Below, in pieces: positions 1,561 through 25,593 of a stretch of 64,000 nt of DNA (position 1 is its first letter; each line of letters begins with the position of its first letter). Where the stretch lies: NCBI GenBank assembly GCA_037481835.1, contig JBBFKW010000009.1, positions 1 through 64,000 of the forward strand. The letters run 5' to 3'. The notes under the pieces were generated by a model. That model was not told where the DNA came from. It ran no database searches and saw nothing but the letters and a program-made list of their open reading frames with translations. The position numbers and the translations under genes are program-made. The DNA comes from Desulfosoma sp. Lineage in GTDB: Bacteria; Desulfobacterota; Syntrophobacteria; Syntrophobacterales; DSM-9756.

Positions 1561-1608
1561 AAAAAAAAAGGCCATGAACGCTGCTCTCCCGCAAGCCTTC
1601 ATGGCCTT
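1561..1608 (-). promoter_or_regulatory. Leader terminator/attenuator hairpin, copy 1 of the GGCCRYGAAGGC motif
   Basis: Minus strand AAGGCCATGAAGGC-TTGCGGGAGAGCAGCG-TTCATGGCC-T9; about 45 nt downstream of TTGACA (1653-1658). Confidence 0.75.
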
Positions 1609-1630
1609 ATTGATTGATAGATTCAAAATT

Positions 1631-1658
1631 AGAATAATGAAGATTGGTTTCCTGTCAA
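1631..1658 (-). promoter_or_regulatory. Putative sigma70 promoter
   Basis: TTGACA-16 nt-TATTCT on the minus strand. Confidence 0.5.
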
Positions 1659-2043
1659 GGAAAATCGAAAAAAGGCAACCCATCCCGGACAGGCTCCGGT
1701 TTCCGGCCGGGTCTCCTAAAGATTTGCGGAAACGATGCAGCGGTTGACACAGACGAAGCCGCGAAAAGAACTATGGATGATGCGCGCCAGAGGCGTGGGG
1801 TCCATCGTGCCCTCAGCATGATCTTTTCGCGGGCTCGCGGGGCAAAAGCCGTCAACATCTCAAACGGTCCTGACGCGACCCCCGTGGTCCCAGGCGCGCG
1901 AAAAACGTGGTGCCCCCAAGCTGCCCTTCAGAGCACATCGAGCGTGCAAACGACACGTTGGGCACCGCATTCCGATCATATCGGGAAAACGTCGCACGGA
2001 CAGCACGATTTTCCCGACACAAGCGCTAGGTACGCGTTGTGAC

Positions 2044-3093
2044 TCATCCTTGTTTTGCGGTGTGGCGGAATGGAAGGTCGCTCACATCGCCCAGGATGTC
2101 CATGAAGGGTTGCCGTCGCAGCCGATGGGGAAGGACCAGTTCAGCGGCGATTTCCACATCTTTTTGTTCCACCATGGTTCTTGCTTCAAAAGCCGCGTGG
2201 GTCTTGGCGCATTTGAGCATGATGATGTCCGCGCGATGACCGTCCACACCCACTTCCAGACAATAAGAGGCGATGTCGAAAAGAAGAGAACGGGCCACGC
2301 TCACGTGCGGGTAGAGGGCCCGTGCCCTCTCAATACGTTCAACCAACTTTCGTGAGGCCTCCGCCCACCGTTCCGTAAAGCCGTCTGGATCGTCATCGAA
2401 AGCCGCCCGGCGCTCCATCAAGTCCACCCGCTGCTCCACCTCCTTCAATCCTTCCACATGAATGCATAAGCCGAACCGGTCCAGCAACTGAGGGCGGAGT
2501 TCCCCTTCTTCGGGGTTCATGGTCCCGATGAGCGTAAACCTGGCGGGATGGGTGAAGCTTACCCCTTCCCTTTCAATGGTGTTGACGCCCATGGCCGCAG
2601 AATCCAAAAGGACGTCCACCACATGGTCGTCCAGCAGGTTCACTTCGTCCACATAAAGAATCCCCCGGTGCGCCGCCGCCAGGAGTCCCGGTTCCACGCG
2701 TTTTTCCCCTTTCTTGAGAGCATGCTCCAAATCCAGCGTCCCCACGACACGATCTTCCGTCGCTCCCACGGGCAATTCCACCACCCGGATTTTGCGCCGC
2801 TCCATCTCTAAAGTTTCCCCTGCCATGACCTTTCGGCTGCATGCCGTGCGCGGGCAATCGGGGCAAATCCCTTCGGGATCTCCAGAGGGAAGCTGGAACG
2901 GGCAGTCTTTGACCACTTCGATTTTCGGCAGGATATGGGCCAGGGCCCGGACGGCCGTGGACTTTCCCGTGCCCTTTTCGCCGCGAATCAGCACTCCGGA
3001 AAGCGTGGGATTGATGATGTTAAGGATGAGGGCTTGTTTCATTTTCTCTTGGCCTACCATGGCGACGAAAGGAAACAGCTTTTCCGCACTCAT
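2044..3093 (-). CDS. chlI: Class I chelatase AAA+ ATPase subunit, ChlI/BchI-like
   Basis: [18 protein letters not shown] Walker [34 protein letters not shown]. Confidence 0.9.
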
Positions 3094-5126
3094 CGGGTCA
3101 CCTCCTTGACGATATGAACAAGCGTGTCGGCCTTGAGATCATCGATGGCAAAGTAGGGGGCGTTCATCACGGCGGCGAGCTTTCGGGCCAAGCCGAACCG
3201 CACGAGGCTCGACTTTTCCGTATCCACCACGATGGGATGAATCCGTTCGTCCAAGGCCAAGCGCTCGGCCACGAGGAGCGCTTCCTCCACGGGTTTGCGC
3301 TTTCCCAGAGCCACGTTGGCCTTGCCGTCGGTGACGATGATCACGATGGGCTTGGCGGTGGGATCCCTCAACAGGACCGTTCGGGTGACTTGATAGGCTT
3401 TGATGAGCGCCCCTGAAAGGGGCGTTCGGCCTCCGACGGGCAGTTGCCGAAGGAGCCGCGCTCCCAGCTCCACCGAAGAGGTGGGAGGCAGCTGAAGCTG
3501 CGCCTCATTTTTTCGAAAGGCGATCATGGCTACCCGATCCCTCTTCTGATAGGCGTCCATCAGAAGAGACATGACGGCCCCTTTGGCGGCTTCCATCCTC
3601 CCCTGGGCCCCCATGGATCCGCTGGCGTCCACCACGAAGAGCAAGAAATTCCCCACACGGCGTTCCCGCACCTTGTGCCGCAGGTCTTCGGAGGTCAGCA
3701 CCACCGCCACTTCGTGGGAGCCTTGCGATCGTCGGGTGGGCTGGTGTGGCGCGGCGGCCCGCAGCGTGGCATCCAAAGCCACATCGGCTCCCGTTCCATG
3801 GAAGCTGCTGCGAACGTAGCGCCCTTGTTTCTGGGCGCAGCGGGTACGGCTCCTTCGTCCCGATCCCCGGCGCAGGAGGCGGTCCTTGGGGGCTGAAAAT
3901 CGGCGCACCTTGAACGTTTCCCCGATTTGAAAGACGCGCTCCAACGCGTTGTTCAATCCCTGGGACGGCTCTTCGGGCGCCCGTTCCTCTGTGGAAGGAA
4001 CGCCCGGTTGGGCGGCTCGAGGAGTTTGCGGAAACTGTAAGGTTTTTTCTTGGGTGTGCTGATTCTGCTCAACCTGGGACTCTCGGTCCGGTTCATCCTC
4101 TTGAGTAGCGTCCTCGCCGCGGGGCTCGGGCGGAGGCGGAGGAGGCGGGGGAGGAGGCGGTGCCGCACGCCTCCTGCGGTGCATGAGGACAAGAGGCGCC
4201 ACTTCCCGGATGTCTTCTATAGTCACCACACCCTTTCTCGCCAAGGCTGCGGCGGCTTTGGCCGCCTGTTCCATGACCAGCTCCGCCCGGTGCCCCGCCA
4301 CGTTCTGTTCCGCGACCAGTTCGGAGATGAAGGTGCGCAGATGTCGGGGTAATCGCACCTTGGGAAGCATTTCTCGAGCCGCCAGGATGGCCCACGCTGT
4401 GGCACGGTTTTCTTTTTCAAACTCCGCCGAAAATTCCTCGGGATCCAAATCGAACCTTTCTCGACGCACCATGAGTTCCACGCGCTGCTTGGGATCTTTT
4501 TCTCCCCAGACTTCCACACAAAGGCCGAAACGATCCAGGAGCTGCGGGCGCAGTTCCCCTTCCTCGGGGTTCATGGTCCCGACGAGAAGGAACCGAGCGG
4601 GATGCCTGAAGGAGATTCCTTCCCGTTCCACGCGGTTCCATCCCGAAGCGGCGGCATCCAAAATGAGGTCGGCGATGTAGTCGTCCAAAAGGTTCACCTC
4701 ATCCACATAAAGGATGCCTCGGTGGGCTTTGGCCAAAACGCCCGGGTGGAAGCGTCGTGCCCCCGTTTTGACGGCGTCTTCGAAATCGATCCCTCCCACG
4801 ACCCGGTCTTCGGTGGCGTTGAGGGGCAGGGTCACCACAGCAGTCCTTCGATGGAGCACGGGAAGGGGCGGTTCGAGGCGGCGACAGGCGGCACACCACT
4901 CTTCAGGCCGGTCCGGGTCACACATGAAGCCGCAGCCTTGGATGACGCGGATTTCGGGAAGAACGGCCGCAAGAGCGCGCACAGCCGTGGATTTCGCCGT
5001 GCCCTTTTCCCCGCGGATAAGCACCCCGCCCACCCCGGGATTGACAGCGCTCAGAAGAAGGGCCTTTTTAAGCTTCTCCTGGGCCACCAGGGCCGAAAAC
5101 GGATACACCCGGGCAACAGCGGACAC
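3090..5126 (-). CDS. chlD: Class I chelatase subunit D, ChlD/BchD-like (AAA + Pro-rich linker + vWA)
   Basis: AAA domain like ChlI, poly-Pro linker, vWA MIDAS DASGSM; GTG start at 5126 after AAGGAAGG. Confidence 0.9.
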
Positions 5127-5194
5127 GTTGCACCTTCCTTTTAAATGTGAGAAACTGAACCGCCCCCGACGTTCATGATCTGGCCGACATTCTT

Positions 5195-7225
5195 TCAAAA
5201 GCTATACGTCACAGAAAGGCCCACAATGTAGTTTCTTTCGGGGATATAGCTTCCGATCTCCCTTTTCTCACGTTCATTAAAAATATTGTACACATCGAAG
5301 CTTGCTTGGATGATGTTTTTCCAATCCAGGGCAAAGCCCAGCGTGTGATACCAAAAGTCCCCTACGGTTTCCATCTGGGGGGGATTGCCCCAACTGGTGG
5401 AGGTGTAGTGACCCCGATACCTGGCCGCATAAGATGTCAGCAGCTTGAAATCGTAAGGGAGGGGTTGAACTGCTCGAAGCCCCAACGTCAGGCTGTTTCT
5501 CGGGTATCCCTCAAGAATGTCCTCGGTTTTTTCGTCGCGCGTTTCATTGTAGTTGTAGTTTAGAAAAAGCTTGGTCTTCCGGGTGAGATAATAGGCCAAT
5601 TCCACGTCAACGCCTTGGATTTCCACTTTATCGATGTTTTCCGGCTGCATGATTTGTCCGCCGGGATTGAGAGGATCCGGGAACCGCACGGACGTGATAA
5701 AATCTTCACCTTTGGTGTAGTACGGGGTTAGCCTGAAAAAGACTTTCTTGTCGAGAAAATATTGTTCTATCGACGCCTCATAAGACCACGTGGTTTCGGC
5801 CTCCAGATCGGGGTTGCCCTGATAGACAATGAAAGGAGCTATGCTCCAAGGAGGCGAAAACAGCTCGTTCAGATTGGGCGCTCGAAATCCTTTTCCGGCG
5901 GAAAGCTTAAGGTTGCCGTCTTTCCAATAGTTCCACCGCAGGGTGGCCTTGGGGGAAAACTCGCTCCCGTAAGTGTCGTAACTGTCGAAACGAGCGCCCA
6001 AAACGAGCTCGAAGTGGTCGAAAAAGGTCCAATCATATTGACCGTAGAGGGACAAAACGGTGTCGTTTTCGTCGGTCTTGAGGCCCGGCCGGCCTTGAAC
6101 ACTGAGAATCTGCCCAGTCGCTCGATCGTAAATGGCCTTTTCGGCCGTTGTGTAAACGGCCTCCGTGCCGATCGTGACAACATGATTTTCGTTCAGCCAA
6201 TAACTGGCGGACACATCGCCCCGGTAGCGATCGGCATCCGTAGTATTGACGGAGGGTCTATAAGAAAATTTGGGGACCACCTGTCCTGAGGGCAGCCGAA
6301 CCCAAGCGACGCTTTCCAAAGTCTCCCCGTAGTAGTCGTGGCCCGAGTGGAGCCAATCCACTTGGGCCCGGAGTTCCAGATTTTCCAATAGTTGACTGGT
6401 CGTCTGCAGATTCAGGTATGGCTGTATGGCGTCCTGATGGTTGTCCAGCCCCAAATTTTTCGAGATGCCTAATCCCGTCTTGCCCCGCATCCATCCCCCC
6501 GAAAAGGAAAAGACGGTGTGATCCCCGACGGATCCCGTCATCTTGCCGTGAACACGGTCATGGTTATAATCCCGATTTTGATCGTCAAGATTTTTGTCAT
6601 TGTAGAGGTAATAATTGTCGATATCCTTATGATCGTAAAAAACACCTAGGGAAAAATTTTTCCAGCTGAGGCCTCCGTCAAGGCCGTAATCCGACCGATT
6701 GAAACTGCCCGTCTCCAGCCAGGGGGTGAGGTTTTTCTTCCCCTGGCCGTCCTTGGTGATAATGTTGACGATGCCGCCGCCGGCGTTGGACCCGTAAAGC
6801 GCCGAAAAAGGCCCGCGGATGACCTCGATCCTCTGCACAGCCCTCACGGGGACGGTGGTCAGGTAGGCATAGTTGGTGAATGGCGAGTCGATGCGCTGTC
6901 CGTCCAGAAGGATGAGCGTGCTTCCGGTAAAGCCCTGGCCCCGCATGGTGAGGAGCTGGGGGGTGACCAGGCCTTCCCCCTGGGGCTCGTTAAAGGAAAC
7001 ACCGGGAAGGTCTGCGATAAGGTCGAAGACGGTGCGGGCCGGCATGGTTTGGATCTCGTCCTGATCAATCACCGTGACCACCGCGGGAATGTTTTCCAGC
7101 TTCTTCGGGGTTTTTGTCGCGGTGACCACAACGGTTTCCAGCTCATGGGCCCTTTCCGTGGATGCTCCCACGGGCGCACTCCACAACAGCAGGCAGACAC
7201 AGAGAATCCCCATGTACCCCTTCAT
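5195..7225 (-). CDS. TonB-dependent outer-membrane receptor
   Basis: Signal peptide, TonB box ETVVVTATKT, RIEVIRGPFSALYG, GNPDLEAE, C-terminal Phe; ATG 7225 after GGGAGG. Confidence 0.9.
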   Translation of the reverse strand: MKGYMGILCVCLLLWSAPVGASTERAHELETVVVTATKTPKKLENIPAVVTVIDQDEIQTMPARTVFDLIADLPGVSFNEPQGEGLVTPQLLTMRGQGFTGSTLILLDGQRIDSPFTNYAYLTTVPVRAVQRIEVIRGPFSALYGSNAGGGIVNIITKDGQGKKNLTPWLETGSFNRSDYGLDGGLSWKNFSLGVFYDHKDIDNYYLYNDKNLDDQNRDYNHDRVHGKMTGSVGDHTVFSFSGGWMRGKTGLGISKNLGLDNHQDAIQPYLNLQTTSQLLENLELRAQVDWLHSGHDYYGETLESVAWVRLPSGQVVPKFSYRPSVNTTDADRYRGDVSASYWLNENHVVTIGTEAVYTTAEKAIYDRATGQILSVQGRPGLKTDENDTVLSLYGQYDWTFFDHFELVLGARFDSYDTYGSEFSPKATLRWNYWKDGNLKLSAGKGFRAPNLNELFSPPWSIAPFIVYQGNPDLEAETTWSYEASIEQYFLDKKVFFRLTPYYTKGEDFITSVRFPDPLNPGGQIMQPENIDKVEIQGVDVELAYYLTRKTKLFLNYNYNETRDEKTEDILEGYPRNSLTLGLRAVQPLPYDFKLLTSYAARYRGHYTSTSWGNPPQMETVGDFWYHTLGFALDWKNIIQASFDVYNIFNEREKREIGSYIPERNYIVGLSVTYSF

Positions 7226-8600
7226 ACCGGCCTCCCTTTCTTTCATGGATGGTCCCCTTTTCCAGAAACAATTCCCTTTGTCCCAAAACGGCGGCGACCC
7301 TCTCATCATGCGTGGCGCTCAGAAGCGCCCCACCTTCTCCCACAAATCGGCTCAATCGCCGGATCATGAGCTTGAGGCTCCGATCATCCTGACCCACGGA
7401 AGGTTCGTCGAGGAGCAGGAGGCGAGGGCGGGCCGCCAGAGCCGCGGCCAGGGTCAACCGTCGCATCTGCCCCATGGAAAGGCTGCGCGGATGCCGATCT
7501 TTGAGGGGCTCCAGCGCCAAAAATTCGAGCTCCTCCCCCACCGCCTCGTCGTCCGACGCTCGAACCCGCACCTCTTCCCAAACCGTGGGCATGAAAAGCT
7601 GGGCCTGAGGCCATTGAAGAACCAGGGTCGCATCCGGAATCCTGCGCTTCGATGCCCTTGCGCCTACGGGAATATCGCACACGACGATGGTTCCCTTTCG
7701 GGGACAGAGCAAACCCATGGCAAGAAGAAAAACGGTGGTCTTGCCGCTCCCGTTGGCCCCGCGCAGCACCACGCTTTCTCCTGAGGCCACCTCGAAGGAC
7801 ACCTGGGAAAGGAGGGGGAAGCCGTCGGCGTCGCCGTAGCCAAACTCCACATCCTCAAAGCGCAGACACACCCGTCCCGGCGGACCCTTTGGAACGGGCG
7901 CCAGGGACTCTTGCGAAGGCGTCTGGGAGCTCAAACGCCCTTGATGAAGGTAGAAGGGCCGAACCCCGGTTGTCCTGAAAAGTTCCGGGCGATGTTCGAT
8001 AACGACTAGGCTTTTTCCCTGGTCTGCGAGGGCGCCGAGCAGATCGAGGAGCACGCCACGACTCTGTTGGTCCAGGTAGGCGCAAGGCTCGTCCAGAATA
8101 AGAAACCTCTGGTCCAGAGCGAGAAGCGCCGCGATCATGACCCGCTGCAATTCCCCGGAAGAAAGGGTTCTTAAAAGCCGGCCCCGTAATTGCTTCGCAT
8201 TGACGAAATTGAGCGCTCGCTCGATGAGGGTTTCCATGGCCTGCGGCGCCACACAGGCGTTTTCCAGTCCGAAGGCGATCTCGTCCTCCACCCGTTCGGT
8301 GAAGGCCATGGCGTTCACGTCTTGCAGCAGAAAGCCCAAAGTCCGACACGTGCGCCACAAAGGCGTTTCCCAGGGCGACCGGCCCAGGATGCGAACACTG
8401 CCGGAAACGTCCGCTTTGAGGAGTTGGGGGATTACGCCGCACAGCGCAAAAGCCAAGGTGGATTTGCCTGAACCCGTCGGACCTAAAAGAAGCGTTGTTT
8501 CTCCCTGGCGAAACTCCGCGTCCAGACCCCGCAAGGTGGGAATCGGCTGGTTGGGGTAGCGCACGCAAAGGCCCCGGACATCAATCACCGTCGCGCCCAT
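7143..8600 (-). CDS. ECF transporter tandem ATPase (A-A' fusion)
   Basis: Two Walker A motifs (GPTGSGKS, GANGSGKT), LSSGE and LSMGQ signatures, EDEIAFGLEN; start could be 8630. Confidence 0.85.
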   Translation of the reverse strand: MGATVIDVRGLCVRYPNQPIPTLRGLDAEFRQGETTLLLGPTGSGKSTLAFALCGVIPQLLKADVSGSVRILGRSPWETPLWRTCRTLGFLLQDVNAMAFTERVEDEIAFGLENACVAPQAMETLIERALNFVNAKQLRGRLLRTLSSGELQRVMIAALLALDQRFLILDEPCAYLDQQSRGVLLDLLGALADQGKSLVVIEHRPELFRTTGVRPFYLHQGRLSSQTPSQESLAPVPKGPPGRVCLRFEDVEFGYGDADGFPLLSQVSFEVASGESVVLRGANGSGKTTVFLLAMGLLCPRKGTIVVCDIPVGARASKRRIPDATLVLQWPQAQLFMPTVWEEVRVRASDDEAVGEELEFLALEPLKDRHPRSLSMGQMRRLTLAAALAARPRLLLLDEPSVGQDDRSLKLMIRRLSRFVGEGGALLSATHDERVAAVLGQRELFLEKGTIHERKGGRYEGVHGDSLCLPAVVECARGSIHGKGP

Positions 8601-9286
8601 TCCAAAACCCCGCACAATCCCATGAGACACACAACCGCGGTGAGCATCAGGCCGTCCCTAAGGCGAAACGCGGGGAATTGTCGGCACGATCGGGCAAGTC
8701 CCGGCGAAAACCCCCGAAGTTCCAGGGCCAAGGTGAGCCGTTCGGAGTAATCGAAGACGTAAAAAACCAATGGGACCACAAGACCCCTGTAGATTCGTTT
8801 CGTCAGAGGCCAGGACTTTCCCCAGAGATGAACAAAAAGCCGCAGGCGACGCACCTCTTCCGCCAGTGTGGGGAAAAAACGCCACATGAGCAGGAGGCTG
8901 ACCATCACGCCGGGCGGAACGGGCAATCGGGACAGAAAGGCGGCCAGGTCCGAGGCAGAAGTCGTCAAGGAAAAAAGAGGTATGGCAAGCAGAAAGACCA
9001 CAAGGCGCAGCGTGTAGGTCACGGCATGGGCGGGATCCTGAGCCACCAGAAAATTGGCTGCAGCAAAAGCAAGCAGCACAGAAAGCAAGGCAACTACACG
9101 CGGCAGCGAAAGGCGAGGCCGAAGGCTTGCGACGACCCCGACGACAAAAAACAGGAGGATCGCCAAAGCATGGGGGTTTTTAAGGAAAAGGGCATAGATC
9201 CCGATACCGCATCCAAGGATCACCTTGGTCAGGGGGTGGAGTCCATGGAGAAAACGAGCAGGAGTGCCGGCGATGCGCTGCATCAT
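8585..9286 (-). CDS. ECF transporter transmembrane T component (EcfT/CbiQ family)
   Basis: LHPLTK, RFFPTL, ALELRGF motifs; multiple TM helices. Confidence 0.85.
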   Translation of the reverse strand: MMQRIAGTPARFLHGLHPLTKVILGCGIGIYALFLKNPHALAILLFFVVGVVASLRPRLSLPRVVALLSVLLAFAAANFLVAQDPAHAVTYTLRLVVFLLAIPLFSLTTSASDLAAFLSRLPVPPGVMVSLLLMWRFFPTLAEEVRRLRLFVHLWGKSWPLTKRIYRGLVVPLVFYVFDYSERLTLALELRGFSPGLARSCRQFPAFRLRDGLMLTAVVCLMGLCGVLEWARR

Positions 9287-9843
9287 CGTACCGAGAGCCC
9301 CAGGTCCAATTTCCCTGCACGAGCCAGTTCCTTGGCCAACTTCAATCCGATGAGCCCGCCGGCAAGTGATGTGGCGAAGATGGCGATTTCAGCAACGACG
9401 AAAATCCAGGGCGCGATTTTGCCGTACCGCTCGGGGAGAAAGAAAAAAGACAGGAGCATGGCGAACGGAAACATGGCCATTTCGTACAGCACGGTCCCGA
9501 CGAGAGGCGCCCGAGTTCCACGATAGCCACGGAAAAGACCGCTGCAGATCAGTTCGCTCACGGCCCCACCCCCAAGGACGAACCCGAAAACCACGGGAGA
9601 TGCGGCCACAAGGCAGATAAGGGAATAGAGGCCCGTAATCAAAAGGAGAGAGCCCGGTCTTCGCAAGCGGACCAGCCCGATGACGATGAAAATAGACGCA
9701 AAGAAGGCGTTGACGGCATTCGCCAGCCCCGGGATACGCAAAGGGAGCGTTACAGGGATGACCACACTCGCCACCACAAGCAAGGCCACGGAGGTCATGG
9801 CGGCAAAGACGTATTCCCTTGTGGTCCAGTATGCGCCTTTCAT
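9283..9843 (-). CDS. ECF transporter S component (MptD-like)
   Basis: 186 aa, about 6 TM helices, RRPGS motif, coupled to EcfT and EcfA. Confidence 0.7.
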   Translation of the reverse strand: MKGAYWTTREYVFAAMTSVALLVVASVVIPVTLPLRIPGLANAVNAFFASIFIVIGLVRLRRPGSLLLITGLYSLICLVAASPVVFGFVLGGGAVSELICSGLFRGYRGTRAPLVGTVLYEMAMFPFAMLLSFFFLPERYGKIAPWIFVVAEIAIFATSLAGGLIGLKLAKELARAGKLDLGLSVR

Positions 9844-16389: not shown

Positions 16390-16418
16390 CGCGGATGACT
16401 CCTTTCTCGGACCAACGG

Positions 16419-17051
16419 CTAGTCCTTTAGGCGTGAAATCCCTTCGGCGCAGCCCCGGCAAAGCGGCCCAGACGGTCCGGAGACCATCTTGCTCGGCATG
16501 GTGGGTTCGCCGCACCGCGGGCACGGTGTGGACGGTTCCATGCGCGCCCTTTCCGGCACGGGTCCGTCCACAAAGGTCGCCCGGAAAAGATCTTCGGGAT
16601 CCGTGCCCAGGATTTCCCGGGTGCGTTGGGCGTGGAGCTGTTCGAAGCGCGCCCTTTCGGCCGCATCGGCTTGGCCGCTCAAAATCTTTTTCAGGAGTTG
16701 GGCGTGTTCCGGATCTTGTCCGAGGACATCCCCTTTCAGGGACACCCGAACGCCCCGGCCCGAGCGGCGGCTGAAGAGCGTAAGGGCGATCTTTCCGTAG
16801 TCTTTGTGGAAAAAATTGCCCTTGCCGAAGGTGCACCCGGTGAGGACCTGAACGGCGTCCACGAAACAGGCGTCGTTTTCCACCACGGCCACCAATTCCT
16901 CGTCTTCGGCGCGGCTGTCTTCCCGAAGCTTGGCCATGGCCAGGCGACTCGCCGCATATCCCAGGGCCAGTCCCGGACACACATGGCCGTGGAAGGCCGC
17001 GCACCGCTGCCACAAGGCTTCGCCCTGCTCTGAAAGGATCCCGTTCTCCAT
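16419..17051 (-). CDS. FmdE-family protein with C-terminal Zn finger
   Basis: FHGHVCPGLALG, ENDACFVDAVQVLTGCTFGKGN, CPRCGE...CRGC. Confidence 0.9.
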   Translation of the reverse strand: MENGILSEQGEALWQRCAAFHGHVCPGLALGYAASRLAMAKLREDSRAEDEELVAVVENDACFVDAVQVLTGCTFGKGNFFHKDYGKIALTLFSRRSGRGVRVSLKGDVLGQDPEHAQLLKKILSGQADAAERARFEQLHAQRTREILGTDPEDLFRATFVDGPVPERARMEPSTPCPRCGEPTMPSKMVSGPSGPLCRGCAEGISRLKD

Positions 17052-17102
17052 CGCCTCTTTCCTTCTTATGGTTCGAAACAGTGTTTTTTCCAAAAGTTCC
17101 GC

Positions 17103-19391: not shown

Positions 19392-19508
19392 GGAACCCTC
19401 CTCCTCGTTAATTTTCCACCTTTTTTGCCATAACCCACTTCCGATGGGTTTTTTGGGGGTTCCATGTCCCCGCGATCGTTTCCAACGCCAAAGCCCCAGA
19501 CACCTCAT

Positions 19509-20600
19509 TCACTGGATGGCTAATTCCACGGCCCCTCCCAGGGGCCCGTACAAGGCTTCCATTTCCGGGTAAACCGATCGCCCCACAAAGGCGGTGTAAA
19601 TCTCATCCGCTTTCCGGCGCAGGTCCACGTCGGCAAACCTTTCGGGGTAGAGCACCTTGCCGACGGCCACCGTATCCACAAGGGCGGACTCCACGTTGGT
19701 GGCATAGGCGTTGAAAGGAAAGAGCCTATAGATGCGCCGGTTTTGATAGGCTTTGAGCCGACTGTAAAAGTCGGGGTGTTTTCGGGCGTCCTCTTCCACG
19801 AGACCCAGCCCGCCGCCGTCGATGAAGATAACGTCCGGGTCGAGGCTCAGGAGCTGTTCCCGGTCCAAGAACAGGTGGCTGCCCAGGCGGCTCTTGACCG
19901 AAGCGGCGGCATGGGTGACGTGGTTCCACAGGAAGGGCGCATAATGGAGTTCGGTGCTTTCGATCCCGTAGGCGCCTTTGTAACCGATGCCGCCCACATG
20001 GGCCCTCGGCCTTTGGGATTCGGGAATGTCCGCGCTGCGCCGCCGGATGTCCTCCCGAAGGCCTTCCACGAAACGGCGCAGGAAATCCACGCGTTCTTCG
20101 CGTCCCAGGACCGTGCCGGCCACGCGCAAGGATTCGAGAATTTCTTCATCGAAGGAGGCGAACCGGCCGTAGCTCAGGACCACGACGGGAATTCCCGACA
20201 GGCGCTGCACCTCGTCAGCCAAGACCTTGTCCATGTAGGTGACGAAAAGCACATCGGGCTTGACGGCGAGAAGCGGCTCCAGATCCGGCTTGGCGTTGAT
20301 GCTCGTCGGGCCGCCGGGGCCGATAAGCGGAAGGTCGGCCAGGGACGGGTGCGCCATGCGATAGGGGCGGCCCGATGCTCCGGTTTTTTCGATGCCTTCC
20401 ACGCCTACCACCAAATCCTGCGCCTGCAGGTAGACGATCAGGCGAAGGCTTCCCGGCGCCATGCACACAATGCGGCGCGGAGGACTCGGAAAAGACACGG
20501 TCCGCCCCGCCATGTCCGTGACCGCAAAATCCGCCGCGGCGACGGCATGCCACAGGAAAATCAAAAGAGCCGCCCAAAAAGCTTTTTCCAAAATCTTCAT
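19509..20600 (-). CDS. Metal-chelate ABC transporter substrate-binding protein (FepB/BtuF-like)
   Basis: Signal peptide; VTDMAGRTV, PRRIV, EQLLSLDPDVI, LYPERF. Confidence 0.85.
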   Translation of the reverse strand: MKILEKAFWAALLIFLWHAVAAADFAVTDMAGRTVSFPSPPRRIVCMAPGSLRLIVYLQAQDLVVGVEGIEKTGASGRPYRMAHPSLADLPLIGPGGPTSINAKPDLEPLLAVKPDVLFVTYMDKVLADEVQRLSGIPVVVLSYGRFASFDEEILESLRVAGTVLGREERVDFLRRFVEGLREDIRRRSADIPESQRPRAHVGGIGYKGAYGIESTELHYAPFLWNHVTHAAASVKSRLGSHLFLDREQLLSLDPDVIFIDGGGLGLVEEDARKHPDFYSRLKAYQNRRIYRLFPFNAYATNVESALVDTVAVGKVLYPERFADVDLRRKADEIYTAFVGRSVYPEMEALYGPLGGAVELAIQ

Positions 20601-20672
20601 GGAGCATCCTTTCCCGGCCCGACGTCCTCTATATCTTTTGTGGTCGGCAGGCTCGGTCTTCGGCCCATTCCC

Positions 20673-21425
20673 TCAGCGCGGCACGACCACGAGGATCTCT
20701 CCGATGCGGCACAGATCCACCTCCACCCCGTAAATGCGCCGCACCGTCTCCGCCGTGACTTCATCGGGCGTTGCGGCGGTTTCAATGCGGCCGCCCCGCA
20801 AAAACAACAACCTATGGCAAAACCGCAAAGCCATGTTCAGGTCGTGGATGGCCGCCACTACCGCTAGGGATTCGCGCCGGCTGATGCGCTGCACCAAGCG
20901 CATGACATCCATCTGGTTTTTCAGATCCAGATGGTTTGTGGGCTCATCTAAAAGGAGCACCCTGGGTTTTTGCGCCAGGGCCTTCGCCAGAAGAACTTTT
21001 TGGGCTTCGCCGCCGCTCAGCGTGGAAAAGCGCCGGTGCGCCAAACCCCCAAGACCCATGGTTTCCAGAATGGTTTCTACAGCTGCGGTGTCCTCCCGGG
21101 TGGGTCCCCACCGCCGGTGGGGAAGCCTTCCCAAGAGGACGACCTCGAACACGGTGAGATCCGAATCCTTGCCCTTTTGCGGGACCGAGGCCACAGACCG
21201 GGCGATGCCTTTGGGGCCTAAGAGGCGAAGGTCCTCGCCGTCCAGGAGGACCGATCCCACGCGGGGTTTGAGAATGCCGTTGAGGCAGCGAAGGAGCGTG
21301 GATTTGCCGGCGCCGTTCATGCCGCAGATCGCCACCATCTCCCCTGCACCAACATCGAAACGGATCCCATGGAGGATGGGGTGGCTGTTGTATTGGAATT
21401 CGATGTCTAAGACGGAGAGAATCAT
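20673..21425 (-). CDS. Metal-chelate ABC transporter ATPase
   Basis: GMNGAGKST, LSGGE, LLDEPTNHLD, HDLN; ATGA overlap with the permease. Confidence 0.9.
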   Translation of the reverse strand: MILSVLDIEFQYNSHPILHGIRFDVGAGEMVAICGMNGAGKSTLLRCLNGILKPRVGSVLLDGEDLRLLGPKGIARSVASVPQKGKDSDLTVFEVVLLGRLPHRRWGPTREDTAAVETILETMGLGGLAHRRFSTLSGGEAQKVLLAKALAQKPRVLLLDEPTNHLDLKNQMDVMRLVQRISRRESLAVVAAIHDLNMALRFCHRLLFLRGGRIETAATPDEVTAETVRRIYGVEVDLCRIGEILVVVPR

Positions 21426-22435
21426 GCGCGTCTCTTTAACAAAAGGGTCAGAAACAGGGGGGCGCCGAGAAAGGAGGTCACCACCCCGACGGGAAACGAT
21501 CCCGTACCCAGCATCGTTCGGGACAAGGTGTCGGCAAGGAGCAGAAGGGCGGATCCCAGAACCGCCGTCATGGGCACAAGAAACCGATGGTCCGCCCCCA
21601 CGATCCGCCGTGCCGCGTGCGGGGCGATGAGGCCGACGAAGGCGATAACCCCGTGAAAGGCCGTGGCGAGAGCCGATACCAGGGCGGCAAGAATGAGCCC
21701 CTGCCAGCGCAGGGTTTCCACGGAAATGCCCAGGTTCTTGGCGGGTTCTTCCCCCATGTCCAAGGCGTTCAGGTGCCAGCGCCACAGAAACCCGACGGCC
21801 CAAAGACACATCACTGAAAGGCTCAGCCACCCGACCTGGGTCCAATTGGAGCGCCCCACATCGCCGAAACTCCAGGCCACGGCCCTGGCCAATCGCGTTT
21901 CGTCACTGAGCACCTGGAGCAGCACGGTGGCCGCCCCGAAGAGGGACGAAAAAGCGACGCCCGCAAGGATCACCGCTTCGGGCGTCAGCCCTCGAAGACG
22001 CCCCAGGACCACGATGAGGACAGTGGCGCCCAAGGAGCCGGCGAAAGCGGCAGTGGCGGTCCAGAAAGGACCGGCCTGGAACAGGATGATGACGCAGGAG
22101 GCGCCGAAGGCCGCCCCTTGGCTGATGCCCAACGTGGACGGCGACCCCAAGGGGTTGCGGAGAAGGGTCTGGATAAAAAGGCCCGCCAGAGCGAGGCCCG
22201 CACCGACGGAAAGGCTGGCGGCGATGCGTGGCAGTCGCACGTTCCAGACCACCACGGCCCGGGTGTCGTCCACGGTCCGCAGGAGGGACTGCACCACGTG
22301 GATGAGCTTTATGGGATAGGTTCCGAAACTCACCGCCACGATGGCCAAAAGAGCCGTGGCTCCGGCGAGAAGGAAAAGGAGTTTTTGTTTTCTCTTGGCC
22401 CTGCGCCAAAAGGTTTCCGCAAGTCCGTGGCTCAT
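21422..22435 (-). CDS. FecCD-family permease
   Basis: RLPR, LRNPL, FVGLIAPH, PVGVVTSFLGAP. Confidence 0.9.
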   Translation of the reverse strand: MSHGLAETFWRRAKRKQKLLFLLAGATALLAIVAVSFGTYPIKLIHVVQSLLRTVDDTRAVVVWNVRLPRIAASLSVGAGLALAGLFIQTLLRNPLGSPSTLGISQGAAFGASCVIILFQAGPFWTATAAFAGSLGATVLIVVLGRLRGLTPEAVILAGVAFSSLFGAATVLLQVLSDETRLARAVAWSFGDVGRSNWTQVGWLSLSVMCLWAVGFLWRWHLNALDMGEEPAKNLGISVETLRWQGLILAALVSALATAFHGVIAFVGLIAPHAARRIVGADHRFLVPMTAVLGSALLLLADTLSRTMLGTGSFPVGVVTSFLGAPLFLTLLLKRRA

Positions 22436-22708: not shown

Positions 22709-22767
22709 AAAAAAAGGGCACACGAAGCCGCCGTCCTCTTCTGAGGCACTGGGCGGCCTTCGTGGCC
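22709..22767 (-). promoter_or_regulatory. Leader terminator/attenuator hairpin, copy 3
   Basis: GGCCACGAAGGCCGCC...GGCGGCTTCGTGTGCCC-T7 between cooT and the FecCD operon. Confidence 0.7.
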
Positions 22768-22819
22768 CCACTTTGGTCTTCGGCTCACCGCGCTCGGGGA
22801 CTTCGGTCCCCGGCGCTTG

Positions 22820-23011
22820 CTACTTTGCTTCGAAAAGGATCTTGTGATCCACCAGGTTCATTACCTTGATGCGCCCCTTGACCGTCTTTCGGTCCCCGAA
22901 AATTCCCACGAGGCGCCACGTATCGTCGCTTTCCGGCTCCACAATGTCCACGGATTCCATGATCAGCTCTTCCCGGCCGTCTCTCAACAAATAGGCATTA
23001 GCTTCACACAT
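22820..23011 (-). CDS. cooT: CooT-family nickel-binding protein
   Basis: 63 aa; MCEANAY start, IMESVD, IFG, HKI at C-terminus (Cys2 and C-terminal His typical of CooT). Confidence 0.85.
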   Translation of the reverse strand: MCEANAYLLRDGREELIMESVDIVEPESDDTWRLVGIFGDRKTVKGRIKVMNLVDHKILFEAK

Positions 23012-23432
23012 CGTGAATCACCTCCTTGATTTTCCCTTCCACGGCGGCTTGCACCAAGTGCGGCAGAGGTTCCTTGGTCACGCCGACAATTTCCACCTTT
23101 TCCTGGCTTAGGGGAATGAGAACCTTGATACCGGGACATGAGGCGACGGCTTCGGCGATCTTCGGCGTCACTTCTCCCAGCATACTGTGCGCCCACGTGA
23201 TGGCAATGGGCCCGACGATGCAGTCGGCCGTGGAAACGGTCCAGCAAATGGCGCTTTCTCCCGTCGCGCCGCGGTTGGCTCCGGCCTTGAGCATCTGCGA
23301 CGTGGCGATGGCGTTGGTCCCCAGGGCGATTACTTCCACCGTTTCGCCGAAAGCCCCCTTCAAGGCCTTGATGACGGCGGCACCGATCCCTCCGCCCTGT
23401 CCGTCAATGACACATATCCTTTTGGTCGACAT
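23004..23432 (-). CDS. DUF3842-family protein
   Basis: VIDGQGGGIG, ALGTNAIAT, KAGA, ATGE, GEVTP motifs. Confidence 0.8.
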   Translation of the reverse strand: MSTKRICVIDGQGGGIGAAVIKALKGAFGETVEVIALGTNAIATSQMLKAGANRGATGESAICWTVSTADCIVGPIAITWAHSMLGEVTPKIAEAVASCPGIKVLIPLSQEKVEIVGVTKEPLPHLVQAAVEGKIKEVIHDV

Positions 23433-23569: not shown

Positions 23570-24433
23570 TCACGTCAACTCAAAGATCAGGCCGATTTCC
23601 ACGGCCAAGGGCTGGGTCAACACGTCCCGGGGAAACCCAGGAAAAGGGGCGGCATCCTGGACGGCCTTCACAGCCGCATCGTCCAAAAGCGATGAAGCAG
23701 AACTTTTGACCACCTGGAGCCCGGCCACCGTCCCGTCGGGATGGATCACAAAGCGCACCGTGACCCGACCTTCCACCTGGCGCCGTCTCGCCGCGTAAGG
23801 GTAATGCTTGAAGCGGTCGATCCGTTGGCGCACCTGGGCGAGAAAGAGCTTCACCGCATCATCCGTCCCGCCCACCGCCGGCGAAGCCGCCTTCCCCTGA
23901 GGAATCCCGAAAGACGCCTGGCGAGCCGGTCCGGCCTCTTCGGCCGAAGGATCCGTTTGTGCCATGGAAGGCGCCGGGGCCGCCTTGGGCGGTGCCGGCG
24001 TCGCCTTCGGTTTTTTCGGTTTCTTGGGAAGCTCGACCCGCTGCAAGGGTTTGGGCTGCGGAACCGGTTCGGGCCGTTTGGGCTCTTCCTTGGGCTGCGG
24101 CTTCACATCGGGCATGGGCAGTGGCGGCGCCGGCGCCACGGGCCGAATATCGTCCCCTTTCGGCGGCTCTTCCCGAACCTTTCCGGCCACGGGGGGAAGG
24201 AGGTCCAGTTCGATCACCTGGAGCGGTTTTCTCTCAAACCACCGCGGACTTCCCGCAAGAAGCACCCCGTGGAGAAGAACAGAAAGGAGCAAAAAAGACC
24301 AAAACAGCCGATCCGATCGGTTCCGAGAAAGCCCCTGTGTTCCGGAAGGCAGCGCAGCCGTCCGCGCCGCAGCCGGGCACGGAGACCTGTGGGCCGGTGC
24401 GGCTTTTGGGAAAACCGATGGCGCGCCCTTCAT
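23570..24433 (-). CDS. tonB: Energy transducer TonB
   Basis: TM with SVLLH, Pro/Lys-rich linker, YPYAARRRQVEGRV, SS..LLDDAA. Confidence 0.9.
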   Translation of the reverse strand: MKGAPSVFPKAAPAHRSPCPAAARTAALPSGTQGLSRNRSDRLFWSFLLLSVLLHGVLLAGSPRWFERKPLQVIELDLLPPVAGKVREEPPKGDDIRPVAPAPPLPMPDVKPQPKEEPKRPEPVPQPKPLQRVELPKKPKKPKATPAPPKAAPAPSMAQTDPSAEEAGPARQASFGIPQGKAASPAVGGTDDAVKLFLAQVRQRIDRFKHYPYAARRRQVEGRVTVRFVIHPDGTVAGLQVVKSSASSLLDDAAVKAVQDAAPFPGFPRDVLTQPLAVEIGLIFELT

Positions 24434-24840
24434 GGCGACGGCCTTTCCGTGGCCAGACGCAGCCGAGCTGCTCCGGCCGCTTTGATCGTGTCCATGACCT
24501 GCACGACGCGATCCAGCACAAGGGTCCTGTCGGCCTTGAGCACCACGGCCGTTTCCGGATCCGCTTCCAGCCGTTGTTTCACAATGTCCCGCAGTTCGTC
24601 CAGATTGAGAATTCTACCCCCCAAAAAGACGTCGCCTTCAGGGCTCACCGTGACCACGAGTTCCCGATCCTCCTGCGGAACCGCCGAAATCGCCTGGGGC
24701 AGCTGGACGCGGATTCCCTCTTCGGCCAGAAAGTTCGTTGTCAGAAGAAAATAGATCAGCAGCAAAAAAACGATATCGATCAGGGACGTGAGCGGCGCCT
24801 GAACGCCGTAACGCGGTCTTTTCCGACGATGAACCAGCAT
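24430..24840 (-). CDS. exbD: ExbD/TolR
   Basis: LTSLIDIVFLLLIYF, LKAD, VMD. Confidence 0.9.
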   Translation of the reverse strand: MLVHRRKRPRYGVQAPLTSLIDIVFLLLIYFLLTTNFLAEEGIRVQLPQAISAVPQEDRELVVTVSPEGDVFLGGRILNLDELRDIVKQRLEADPETAVVLKADRTLVLDRVVQVMDTIKAAGAARLRLATERPSP

Positions 24841-24846
24841 GCCCCG

Positions 24847-25461
24847 TTATCCTCCGCACGCCATGGACACGCTCTTGAAAAAGCGCACCACCCCGTCTTG
24901 AAGTCGGGCTTCGTAGCGATCCACCTGGCTTGTGAGGTAACTGTGGGCCACCATGACGGGCAAGGCCACACTCAAACCCAACGCAGTGGTCAGCATGGCT
25001 TCCCAGATCCCGCCGGCCAAAATAGAGGCATCCACCTTGCCGCCCAGTTCCTGGATGGCCATAAAGGCTTTGATCATGCCCATGACGGTGCCCAAGAGCC
25101 CGAGAAGCGGCGCGATATTGCCGATGGTGGCCAAGGCTTGCAAATACCGGGAAAGGTCTCGCACTTCTTCTTCAATGGCATGGACGAGGACCGTCTCCAG
25201 CGTTTCCCGGTCCGCCGAAGCCACTTCCAGCCCCTGGGCCAAAACCCGGCCCATGGGGGAACGGCTCTTCAGGGCCGCCTCCAGAGCCGCGTCCATTTTG
25301 CCTTCCCGAACCAGGGCCGATACCCGATCCGCAACATGGCGGCCGCGCCGCCGAAGCACGGCGAAGCGCACCGTGCGCTCCAAGAAGATGGCCAAGCCCA
25401 GCACAGAACACAACAAAATGGGGATGACCAAAACCCCGCCTTTGGCAAGAAACCCCACCAC
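24847..25461 (-). CDS. exbB: ExbB/MotA/TolQ proton channel
   Basis: APLLGLLGTVMGMI, GIWEAMLTTALGL; GTG start after GGAGG. Confidence 0.9.
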   Translation of the reverse strand: MVGFLAKGGVLVIPILLCSVLGLAIFLERTVRFAVLRRRGRHVADRVSALVREGKMDAALEAALKSRSPMGRVLAQGLEVASADRETLETVLVHAIEEEVRDLSRYLQALATIGNIAPLLGLLGTVMGMIKAFMAIQELGGKVDASILAGGIWEAMLTTALGLSVALPVMVAHSYLTSQVDRYEARLQDGVVRFFKSVSMACGG

Positions 25462-25540
25462 CTGGAACCCTCCATACACTGCCCGGTTCAGGCCTCTTCC
25501 CAGCCAGCCCGATCCCGCCACATTTTTTCATCACAAACAG

Positions 25541-25593
25541 AAAGGCCACGACCCATCGCTTCATTCAGCGAAAGCGACAGCCTTCGTGGCCTT
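25541..25593 (-). promoter_or_regulatory. Leader hairpin, copy 4
   Basis: AAGGCCACGAAGGC-TGTCGCTT...AAGCGATGG-GTCGTGGCC-TTTCTGTTT; TTGACA at 25676-25681 upstream. Confidence 0.7.

Follow-up and report, generated by a model that had tools for sequence, protein, structure and literature searches.

A candidate leader-attenuator RNA family heading metal-uptake operons in Desulfosoma and other bacteria

The window, a 64,000-nucleotide stretch of Desulfosoma sp. DNA, carries four hairpins (HP1 to HP4) that are rather likely to be members of a widespread, uncatalogued leader-RNA family controlling transcription by attenuation. The family probably switches nickel/cobalt-type import genes on or off during transcription; the sensor, the metal, the direction of the response and its control by metal or protein are points that we infer. 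A preliminary description of this DNA had proposed a new attenuator RNA, located in leaders, that defines a metal-uptake regulon and differs from the B12 riboswitch, and the Rfam comparison, the recovered family and the gene context presented here all support that proposal.

All four hairpins are present where that description had placed them. It had assigned them to the coding strand of the neighboring genes, which holds, with the correction that this strand is minus, both for the motif and for the hairpin with its U-tract. The four minus-strand hairpins share the 5′ arm GGCCRYGAAGGC, and each is followed by a U-tract:

1568..1608, minus: HP1 terminator hairpin, AAGGCCAUGAAGGC...UUCAUGGCCUU; MFE -27 to -29 kcal/mol; R2 model 55.4 bits
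1561-1569, minus: HP1 U-tract
1593-1607, minus: HP1 mini-hairpin P2, GGCC-AUGAA-GGCU, the 5′ arm folding alone
1631..1658, minus: HP1 promoter-like site, TTGACA (1658->1653), 16-nt spacer, TATTCT
1695->1677, minus: separate terminator-like site upstream of the HP1 promoter-like site
13627..13665, minus: HP2 terminator hairpin; R2 model 42 bits
13619-13628, minus: HP2 U-tract
13650-13664, minus: HP2 mini-hairpin P2
13667..13687, minus: HP2 upstream hairpin P1, GAGGCUCU-AAGAA-GGAGCUUU; dG -8.3 kcal/mol
13728->13723, minus: HP2 TTGACA
22715..22769, minus: HP3 terminator hairpin, bulged U in 3′ arm; -37 kcal/mol; R2 model 49.9 bits
22709-22715, minus: HP3 U-tract
22754-22768, minus: HP3 mini-hairpin P2
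22795..22812, minus: HP3 upstream hairpin P1, CGGGGAC-CGAA-GUCCCCG, directly after the CooT stop codon; dG -12.3 kcal/mol
25542..25593, minus: HP4 terminator hairpin; -29 kcal/mol; R2 model 55.5 bits
25532-25543, minus: HP4 U-tract, interrupted
25578-25592, minus: HP4 mini-hairpin P2
25624..25640, minus: HP4 upstream hairpin P1, GGCGCC-GCGAA-GGCGCC; dG -12.4 kcal/mol
25681->25676, minus: HP4 TTGACA

Exact matches to GGCCRYGAAGGC occur five times in the window (starts 1606, 13663, 22767, 25591 and 30976, all minus) against 0.12 expected, and none of 100 shuffles reached five. The match at 30976 formed no terminator hairpin on folding (z -0.49); folding energies of the four hairpins range from -24 to -39 kcal/mol, with z of -4.0 to -5.3. 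The exact 12-mer is found 25 times across the 3.63-Mb genome, and only these four copies combine it with a hairpin and T-tract; judged from their flanks alone, the other 21 look like ordinary, probably coding, sequence. A covariance model built from the four hairpins revealed no further strong copy across the genome, and the comparison with Rfam that the preliminary description had called for matched them to no family, even at E<=5.

The hairpins occupy 5′ leaders or intercistronic positions of metal-uptake operons. As noted earlier, a perfect TTGACA lies upstream of the motif in three copies, starting 52, 65 and 90 nt away. The leader ahead of HP1 is only ~15 nt long and contains no P1 hairpin; it is preceded by a promoter-like site and, further upstream, by a separate terminator-like site, so it cannot be read simply as the terminator of the upstream operon, which bears out its earlier assignment as a leader and not an end-of-gene terminator. 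HP2, which falls under a stricter R2 cut-off and was hence left out of set A6, ends ~18 nt upstream of the CobN GTG start (13601) with AAGGAG in between, leaving no room for a promoter after the hairpin. HP3 has the apical loop AGAA and is flanked by the CooT stop on one side and the FecCD operon (start 22435) on the other. The genes behind the hairpins, together with a cobalamin riboswitch identified by an Rfam search of the window at the head of an adjoining operon, are:

345..1403, minus: FmdE-domain protein gene, behind HP1
2044..13601, minus: HP2-led operon (CobN, ECF S component, CbiQ, double ABC ATPase, TonB-dependent receptor, ChlD-like, ChlI-like)
13747..22435, minus: HP3-led operon (FecCD permease, ABC ATPase, periplasmic binding protein, two TonB-dependent receptor-like proteins, methyltransferase)
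23570..25521, minus: HP4-led exbB, exbD, tonB
23004..23432, minus: DUF3842 gene, 142 aa, last but one in the HP4-led operon (PF12953, E 7.6e-54)
22820..23011, minus: CooT-family gene, 63 aa, product starting MCEANAY (PDB 6fan CooT, E 2e-11)
30837->30652, minus: cobalamin riboswitch

The HP4-led operon thus reads exbB-exbD-tonB-DUF3842-cooT; exbB may start at 25521 or, with a better ribosome-binding site, at a GTG near 25470.

A covariance model and a search of related genomes, both suggested in the preliminary description, recovered a family with at least 64 aligned members. By the R2 covariance model, 53 of 61 relatives carry the hairpin (E<=1e-3), as do 35 of 151 phylum-sampled genomes (E<=1e-5), and an exact-pattern scan found at least 121 stretches in records from Desulfobacterota, Nitrospirota, Bacillota, NC10, Anaerolineae and Spirochaetia. 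Relatives show promoter-like sites ahead of the hairpin and, after it, a ribosome-binding site and ATG. Tabulating the downstream genes, as had also been advised, showed metal-uptake or metal-handling families after 54 of 64 examined copies (4/4 in the window, 18/19 and 32/41 elsewhere), a tally based on crude ORF picking in which porins and generic ABC components were scored as uptake type; the remaining ten copies precede unrelated genes or nothing recognizable. By gene context, the regulon comprises TonB-dependent receptors, ExbB-ExbD-TonB, FecCD-type and Nik/Opp-type ABC importers, CbiM/CbiQ ECF transporters, CobN/ChlI/ChlD chelatases, FmdE-like proteins, CooC-like P-loop proteins, CbiK and the DUF3842-CooT pair. 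This gene content points to acquisition of nickel, or possibly cobalt.

Within the 64-member alignment, 91.1% of stem cells pair and 7 of 14 pairs vary on both sides, with changes that include compensatory and G-U substitutions. None of 500 shuffles reached the observed pairing score, and slid controls pair in 30-61% of cells. Read from the opposite strand, many of the G-U pairs would turn into A-C mismatches, in favor of an RNA structure on this strand. The earlier account of the stem triplets (AUG/CAU, GUG/CAC and ACG/CGU) holds. The G after GAA, reported earlier as unpaired in every copy, is unpaired in the folds of these four hairpins; it is paired in 56 of 64 aligned members, so an unpaired G is not a family feature. 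G8, C10, G13, A14 and A15 are invariant in all 64 members, although the 3′ partners of invariant arm positions (columns 62-65) are unpaired in 8-22 of them; the 5′ arm is therefore conserved beyond the needs of pairing.

The 5′ arm, (A/G)GCC-AYGAA-GGC(U/C), can also fold on itself into P2, a 5-bp mini-hairpin with the loop AYGAA. Since P2 uses bases of the lower terminator stem, the two structures are mutually exclusive. P2 pairing is seen in 84.6% of cells, compared with 15-59% when slid; pair 7-19 is AU in 26 members, GC in 20, GU in 16 and other in 2 (n=64), and C9-G17 is replaced by U9-A17 in one member. The P2 columns are nearly invariant, covariation comes mostly from pair 7-19, and kinship among the sequences can produce a covariation-like signal. 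An upstream hairpin, P1, with a GAA-ending loop of 4-6 nt, lies within 100 nt upstream of 35 of 67 copies (mean 4.7 and maximum 12 in 200 shuffles). This enrichment is ~7-fold over shuffles, and GAA ranks first among the 64 triplets as an upstream loop ending. P1 is absent from the 100 nt upstream of the other 32 copies, including HP1, so a strict requirement for two hairpins does not hold. The apical loop of the terminator itself ends in GAA in 19 of 64 members, versus a shuffled mean of 2.4 and maximum of 7.

By its anatomy each element is an intrinsic terminator, with a U-tract after a long G+C-rich hairpin, and we propose that a trans-acting factor decides whether this terminator forms. 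P2 alone is weak (-4.6 to -7.4 kcal/mol, versus -27 to -37 for the terminator), and the model therefore needs a hypothetical factor. Such a factor would bind the GAA-loop hairpins of the nascent RNA as it leaves RNA polymerase and keep P2 closed, thereby blocking the terminator and permitting transcription of the downstream operon; without it, the far more stable terminator would form and transcription would stop. Alternatively, with the opposite polarity, the factor might clamp the terminator shut when metal is plentiful. A candidate for this factor is the conserved DUF3842-CooT pair, with CooT as a putative nickel sensor.

DUF3842 is encoded in 35 of 35 motif-positive genomes of the phylum sample and the motif occurs in 0 of 93 DUF3842-negative ones, while 23 of 58 DUF3842-positive genomes give no R2 match at E<=1e-5; in other phyla DUF3842 is found in 8 of 10 motif-bearing genomes versus 0 of 14 controls, all counts in which related genomes are not independent and significance is overstated. 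By coordinates, ~17 of 61 relatives, along with at least nine further phylum genomes, have a motif copy within ~2 kb of a DUF3842 gene. DUF3842 adjoins CooT, a nickel-binding protein, in 53 of 58 genomes; in the window, the last 8 nt of the DUF3842 gene are shared with the CooT gene, which stops 8-50 nt before P1 and HP3. Several sources name the CooT family “predicted RNA-binding protein”. In a structural model, DUF3842 adopts a small Rossmann-like fold that carries a glycine-rich loop, and its PDB matches, to NAD(P)- and FMN-binding domains, are weak (TM about 0.5); neither the model nor these matches revealed a known RNA-binding fold. PyrR, a small alpha/beta protein of nucleotide-binding type, binds leader hairpins to decide between a terminator and an alternative fold, stabilizing an anti-antiterminator in response to UMP. 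By analogy, it may illustrate how a Rossmann-like protein, DUF3842 for instance, could act on RNA, but the two systems lack sequence or motif similarity, and RNA or nucleotide binding by DUF3842 is hypothetical. Judging only from co-occurrence and adjacency, the DUF3842-CooT pair may read the leader RNA; alternatively, both proteins may be ordinary regulon members, for example metallochaperones.

A protein-free riboswitch, in which the hairpins themselves bind Ni2+/Co2+ or a small metal chelate (the GAA loops and the internal loop being conceivable sites) and so shift the balance between P2 and terminator, seems to us unlikely. It would account for the strong conservation of the 5′ arm across phyla, the metal-related regulon and the lack of a recognized RNA-binding fold in DUF3842, and metal-sensing riboswitches (NiCo, Mn2+) provide precedent. 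As proposed for our element, the NiCo/czcD, Mn2+ yybP-ykoY and cobalamin riboswitches are cis-acting leaders controlling metal or corrinoid transport genes through a terminator. However, our hairpins match none of them in Rfam at E<=5, and conservation covers far less RNA, ~12-15 nt together with short hairpins that vary. HP1, with its ~15-nt leader and no P1, offers scant RNA for a selective pocket, and distances and sequences between hairpins are unconstrained. The strict tie to DUF3842 (35/35 versus 0/93) would be unexpected of a self-sufficient RNA. The NiCo riboswitch turns on efflux genes when metal is in excess, whereas uptake genes lie behind the GAA-loop hairpins. We consider it very unlikely that the hairpins are ordinary intrinsic terminators of upstream operons, alike through common AAAGGCC...GGCCUUU stems or local copying and without regulatory role. 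Their anatomy is canonical, other terminators in the genome begin with GGCC and some with GGCCRYG, and same-strand genes lie upstream of HP3 and HP4. Against this, the full 12-mer hairpin is confined to four genome sites, the same 5′ arm precedes like genes (54/64) in many genera and several phyla and is conserved even where its 3′ partner is not, upstream GAA-loop hairpins exceed shuffles ~7-fold, and separate terminator-like and promoter-like sites precede HP1.

A divergent target of an ANTAR-domain antiterminator is highly improbable. The logic is similar: ANTAR factors are thought to bind small hairpins co-transcriptionally and so prevent the terminator, and in the leaders targeted by EutV, NasR and AmiR a small hairpin is the alternative fold of the terminator 5′ arm, another of the same kind precedes it and conserved loop nucleotides are the recognizable feature (PMC8934654). 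Our genome also encodes one ANTAR protein, but on another contig (C7). ANTAR sites are hexaloops whose first nucleotide is A and whose fourth is G (PMC8934654), whereas P2 has the 5-nt loop AYGAA and P1 loops are of 4-6 nt ending in GAA; 32 of 67 copies have no upstream hairpin within 100 nt; and the regulon concerns metal uptake, not ethanolamine, nitrate or amide use. Any ANTAR match occurs in only 14 of 35 motif-positive genomes, a phyletic test that largely refutes this reading. The earlier statement that the element does not resemble ANTAR targets thus stands for their defining features and fails for the logic of small hairpins, one overlapping the terminator. We give similarly little credence to a DNA-level element, either an operator palindrome of a metal-dependent repressor or a REP/MITE-like repeat. 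The arms do form an inverted repeat in DNA, and two members (L039 and L040) are near-perfect palindromes that match on both strands. The regulon is of the kind governed by NikR and Fur (TonB-dependent receptors, ExbBD-TonB, Nik/Cbi transporters), protein repressors of nickel and iron uptake that act on promoter DNA. Our element, in contrast, is a structured RNA: the inter-arm spacer varies from ~10 to 40 nt with unrelated sequence, many G-U pairs work on one strand only, and the reverse strand scores far lower with the model. The genome holds just four copies, without flanking repeat structure; the U-tract is always on one side, and the hairpins lie downstream of promoter-like sites with no overlap.

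The window contains five copies of the 12-mer GGCCRYGAAGGC, on the minus strand every time, against an expectation of 0.12, and none of 100 shuffled sequences reached five copies. Four of the five lie in the 5′ arms of long hairpins in front of metal-uptake operons, which we call HP1 to HP4. The features concerned, from high to low coordinates, are:

30965-30976, minus: fifth 12-mer, directly behind the stop codon of an open reading frame at 30987-31838
30837 to 30652, minus: cobalamin riboswitch, then a TonB-dependent receptor and a BtuF/FecCD/ABC importer
HP4, motif start 25591, minus: 12-mer in the 5′ arm of a long hairpin, then a U-tract; followed by exbB-exbD-tonB-DUF3842-cooT
22820-23432, minus: DUF3842 and CooT genes, overlapping by 8 nt
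HP3, motif start 22767, minus: same arrangement; followed by FecCD, an ABC ATPase, a binding protein, two TonB-dependent receptor-like proteins and a methyltransferase
HP2, motif start 13663, minus: same arrangement; followed by CobN, an ECF S component, CbiQ, a double ATPase, a TonB-dependent receptor, ChlD and ChlI
1695 to 1677, minus: terminator-like site ahead of HP1
1658 to 1631, minus: promoter-like site between the terminator-like site and HP1
HP1, motif start 1606, minus: same arrangement; followed by an FmdE-domain protein

Each of the four combines, on the transcribed strand, a stable G+C-rich hairpin with an immediate U-tract, the anatomy of an intrinsic (Rho-independent) terminator. 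Their minimum free energies range from -24 to -39 kcal/mol (z from -4.0 to -5.3), and their U-tracts are 7-10 nt long, that of HP4 being interrupted (8 U in 12). The preliminary description had the coordinates of these hairpins right but not the strand: the elements are read on the minus strand, which is the coding strand of all flanking genes. Its perfect TTGACA upstream of three copies is present, starting 52, 65 and 90 nt before the motif of HP1, HP2 and HP4, respectively. About 18 nt, including an AAGGAG, separate the end of HP2 from the GTG start codon of CobN, and because a promoter does not fit behind HP2, CobN must be transcribed through it. HP3 is intercistronic, starting about 50 nt past the CooT stop codon. 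Across the 3.63-Mb genome the exact 12-mer occurs 25 times, with a hairpin and T-tract at HP1-HP4 only, and a covariance model built from these four found no further strong copy in the whole genome. The fifth 12-mer of the window (30976), about 100 nt upstream of the promoter-like TTGACA of the riboswitch (30859), was dropped as a family member since it has no terminator hairpin (z -0.49). It folds only as a mini-hairpin, GGCC-AUGAA-GGCU, and may be a chance occurrence, a remnant or a stand-alone binding site.

A pattern search of 61 relatives returned many matches consisting of a hairpin plus a U-tract, and 26 of these were used to build R2, a covariance model of what we call the GAA-loop attenuator family. 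In the search of related genomes that the preliminary description had proposed, R2 matches in 53 of the 61 relatives at E ≤ 1e-3; in a sample of 151 genomes spread evenly over the phylum, it matches in 35 at E ≤ 1e-5. HP1-HP4 score 42-55.5 bits and show every defining trait of the family: a 5′ arm of the form RGCC-AYGAA-GGCY inside a terminator hairpin, a U-tract, and metal-uptake genes downstream. Among the matches listed from a scan of 185,579 species genomes, at least 121 stretches carry the exact pattern; these records are mostly from Desulfobacterota, with others from Nitrospirota, Bacillota, NC10, Anaerolineae, Spirochaetia and further groups. Tepidibacter formicigenes and Thermovorax subterraneus are among the species listed, and two of the records, from an Acidobacteriota MAG and a Thermoplasmata MAG, may be chance matches. 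The Rfam scan that had likewise been proposed gave nothing overlapping any hairpin in Rfam 15, even at E ≤ 5 over positions 1-31500, and the sole match at gathering score was the Cobalamin riboswitch at 30652-30837. The earlier judgment that the hairpins do not resemble the cobalamin, NiCo or Moco elements stands; no covariance model of Rfam 15, including Cobalamin, NiCo, Moco and mini-ykkC, matches them. In the literature on DUF3842, CooT, nickel riboswitch candidates and attenuation, the motif is undescribed as far as titles and abstracts show. The element is real and lies outside Rfam 15.

In a model-fitted alignment of 64 members, 91.1% of cells in the 14-bp lower stem pair. Seven pairs of the lower stem show changes on both sides (56 cells); its score was equalled in none of 500 shuffles, and slid controls pair in 30-61% of cells. 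These figures are biased in favor of the structure, to which the alignment had itself been fitted and for which some of the seed was picked by a pattern requiring R/Y at variable stem positions. Conservation of the 5′ arm exceeds what pairing needs: G8, C10, G13, A14 and A15 are invariant (64/64), and at the top of the stem the 3′ partners of invariant bases are unpaired in 8-22 of the 64 members. The G after GAA, unpaired in the four window copies as first described, does not stay so in the family, where this position is paired in 56 of 64.

The 5′ arm can also fold on itself, as (A/G)GCC-AYGAA-GGC(U/C), into an alternative mini-hairpin that we call P2. P2 overlaps the terminator in every aligned member, and because the two use the same bases they are mutually exclusive. 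Its cells pair in 84.6% of cases versus 15-59% for slid controls, and its free energy alone is -4.6 to -7.4 kcal/mol, against -27 to -37 kcal/mol for the terminator. Pair 7-19 is AU in 26 members, GC in 20, GU in 16 and otherwise in 2 (n=64), and U9-A17 replaces C9-G17 in one member; at the second loop position, C (41 members) prevails over U (18), G (3) and A (2) (n=64). In 35 of 67 members (dinucleotide-shuffle mean 4.7, maximum 12), HP2, HP3 and HP4 among them but not HP1, the 100 nt upstream contain a separate hairpin with a GAA-ending loop, P1. Its loops are 4-6 nt long (among them UGAA, AGAA, AAGAA and AUGAA), and GAA ranks top of all 64 triplets as a loop end upstream of the terminator. 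The terminator tip itself ends in GAA in 19 of 64 members (shuffle mean 2.4, maximum 7). In two relatives (L034 and L035) P1, which precedes the terminator motif by about 59 nt, is GGCC-GUGAA-GGCC and thus almost the same as the terminator 5′ arm; it could in principle pair with the terminator 3′ arm too. Two other members (L039 and L040) are near-perfect palindromes, matched by the model in either orientation and flanked on each side by A-runs and T-runs; they may work in both directions, between genes that converge or diverge.

We next tallied the genes downstream of the copies, searching in both sets of relatives on the same strand up to about 2-3 kb and leaving out three members (L036 at 5005, and L037 at 2255 and at 3699).

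Gene families downstream of motif copies
Window: 4 copies, 4 with a metal-uptake or metal-handling family downstream
First relatives: 19 copies, 18 with a metal family downstream, 1 with nothing
Further relatives: 41 copies, 32 with a metal family downstream, 7 with nothing, 2 with unrelated genes
Total: 64 copies, 54 with a metal-uptake or metal-handling family downstream

In these counts, open reading frames were picked mechanically, and porins and generic ABC parts were scored as uptake type; the two unrelated genes encode an asparagine synthase and a glycosyltransferase. The families found comprise TonB-dependent receptors, ExbB/ExbD/TonB, FecCD-ABC-binding protein, CbiM/CbiQ, SBP_bac_5 with oligo_HPY ATPases, ChlI/ChlD, FmdE, CooT, DUF3842, CbiK, CbiA/CooC-like P-loop proteins, DUF4198, ZnuA, and OprB- or MetA-type porins. 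This gene mix points to acquisition of nickel, or possibly cobalt.

Two of these families, DUF3842 and CooT, are linked to the motif both in their distribution and in their position. In the phylum sample DUF3842 is present in 58 of 151 genomes, among them all 35 motif-positive ones, and the motif is found in none of the 93 DUF3842-negative genomes; 23 DUF3842-positive genomes have no R2 match at E ≤ 1e-5. Within the order co-occurrence is uninformative, since 60 of 61 genomes carry DUF3842. Of 10 motif-bearing genomes tested from other phyla, 8 have the domain, against 0 of 14 well-known control genomes. CooT occurs in 34 of the 35 motif-positive genomes, yet also in 56 of 116 motif-negative ones, and thus predicts the motif less well. 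Read off coordinates, roughly 17 of the 61 relatives and at least nine further phylum genomes have a DUF3842 gene no more than about 2 kb from a motif copy. The gene is placed either just behind a leader or just ahead of one, as it is in the window. In 53 of the 58 DUF3842-positive genomes of the phylum sample, DUF3842 and CooT are neighbors, a strongly conserved two-gene module. The significance of all these counts is overstated, related genomes not being independent.

CooT is a nickel-binding dimer with an Sm-like fold, known to our knowledge solely as a nickel accessory protein of CO dehydrogenase, and several sources name its family "predicted RNA-binding protein". The CooT of the window matches the solved structure 6fan (E 2e-11), and Cys2 and His56 are invariant across 24 sequences. 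For DUF3842 we know of no assigned role. Its model (pLDDT 86.6) shows a Rossmann-like alpha/beta domain of small size whose DGQGGGIG loop is invariant, a predicted fold that is not a recognized RNA-binding one; Foldseek gave only weak Rossmann-type matches in the PDB (TM about 0.5), and the sequence found no meaningful match there. Complex prediction for the two proteins scored 0.01 in a run without controls, and speaks neither for nor against binding.

The GAA-loop leaders are a new family, probably within a known type of control, the factor-dependent terminator/antiterminator leader. The analysis establishes their terminator anatomy, their position as leaders, the alternative fold of the 5′ arm, the enrichment of GAA loops, the makeup of the regulon, and the tie to DUF3842-CooT in distribution and position. 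In the mechanism we propose, a factor would bind the GAA-loop hairpins co-transcriptionally and stabilize P2, and with P2 so held the terminator could not form. When the factor is inactive, presumably under metal-replete conditions, the terminator would form and the uptake genes would be off. With the opposite polarity a metal-loaded factor would clamp the terminator, giving the same physiology. As the factor we tentatively suggest the DUF3842-CooT pair, which would then be a new kind of metal-sensing RNA-binding regulator; we hold this identification to be a possibility somewhat short of even. CooT, by itself or jointly with the Rossmann-like DUF3842, would report nickel status, and the complex would bind the GAA-loop hairpins of nascent leaders, choosing P2 or the terminator.

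Alternatives to this factor-dependent mechanism differ in what would read the leader. A protein-free riboswitch for a metal or chelate would not be expected to show the tie between DUF3842 and the motif, and we consider it unlikely. Plain terminators would have the hairpin and U-tract seen here; set beside a 5′ arm conserved beyond its pairing, this reading appears very unlikely. The many G-U pairs of the lower stem (64-member alignment) argue for an RNA on the strand that is read, and we give hardly any credence to a DNA-level operator or repeat. Equally far-fetched is an ANTAR target, for all that ANTAR leaders share the logic of the GAA-loop leaders. ANTAR sites are hexaloops in which position 1 is A and position 4 is G (PMC8934654). 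ANTAR target leaders carry tandem small hairpins, the second overlapping the terminator 5′ arm, and their ANTAR-domain protein is encoded in the same genome, usually close by. Here P2 overlaps the terminator in all aligned members, and P1 is present within 100 nt in 35 of 67, HP1 being one of those that lack it. The P2 loop is a pentaloop, AYGAA, with G at position 3, and the GAA-ending P1 loops vary from 4 to 6 nt, so that neither is the ANTAR hexaloop; any ANTAR match occurs in just 14 of the 35 motif-positive genomes, and the single ANTAR gene of the source genome sits on another contig, C7. The non-resemblance to ANTAR first reported holds for the loops, but not for the leader logic. The ANTAR-domain match itself, the only one in the genome, is at C7:62562-62714 (minus), in a 516-aa open frame.

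Two further known systems differ from the family. Antitermination of the BglG/SacY type at RAT sites requires a CAT-domain protein, and the CAT RNA-binding domain (PF03123) has no match in the source genome, which is 99.4% complete (the control was positive in 4 of 14 known genomes). Guanidine-II (mini-ykkC) consists of two hairpins with ACGR tetraloops, whereas P2 has pentaloops and P1 loops such as UGAA or AAGAA, with no Rfam match.

Current accounts of bacterial nickel and cobalt uptake assign its control to DNA-binding repressors (NikR, Fur-family) and the B12 riboswitch. This control would, if true, gain an RNA level from a widespread attenuator RNA ahead of TonB-dependent receptors, ExbBD-TonB, Nik/Cbi transporters and chelatases, and would do so in many anaerobes, including sulfate reducers, syntrophs, Nitrospirota and Clostridia-type Bacillota. 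Were DUF3842-CooT its reader, nickel-responsive transcription attenuation would have its first example, in a protein-RNA regulon across Desulfobacterota, Nitrospirota, Bacillota and other phyla; DUF3842, a domain of unknown function, would gain one, within a new class of metal-sensing RNA-binding regulator, and the wide use of the "predicted RNA-binding protein" label for CooT-family proteins would find a possible reason. The two small proteins thereby acquire a testable hypothesis. Moreover, the conserved signature of 12-15 nt makes regulon prediction easy, and could aid substrate assignment for the many uncharacterized TonB-dependent receptors and CobN-like chelatases behind the motif.

The surrounding genes show several further features. 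At 2044-13601 (minus), a chelatase of CobN/ChlD/ChlI type, an ECF transporter (Trep_Strep-like S component, CbiQ and a fused double ATPase) and a TonB-dependent receptor share one operon, an unusual combination. At 14425-17013 (minus) lies an 862-aa protein in which Pfam recognizes only the TonB-dependent receptor Plug domain, the barrel being unmatched; it adjoins a regular 801-aa receptor and may itself be a divergent receptor. The spacer between HP3 and the FecCD start (22435) is 270 nt long and G+C-rich, with no recognized open reading frame, and contains a short second terminator-like hairpin with a T-run at 22599-22616 (minus). A faint likeness of GCCAC...GAAGGC to GCCACUG...GGGAAGGC of the neighboring cobalamin riboswitch was taken as coincidence because the aptamer is undetectable at the hairpins. 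That riboswitch (30652-30837, minus) is full-length, scores 113 bits, has its own terminator-like hairpin (stem 30590 to 30568), and heads an open reading frame of TonB-dependent receptor size (28504-30495) plus the BtuF/FecCD/ABC importer. The stop of this B12-controlled operon (25693) lies about 100 nt upstream of HP4, chaining it head to tail with the GAA-loop regulon.
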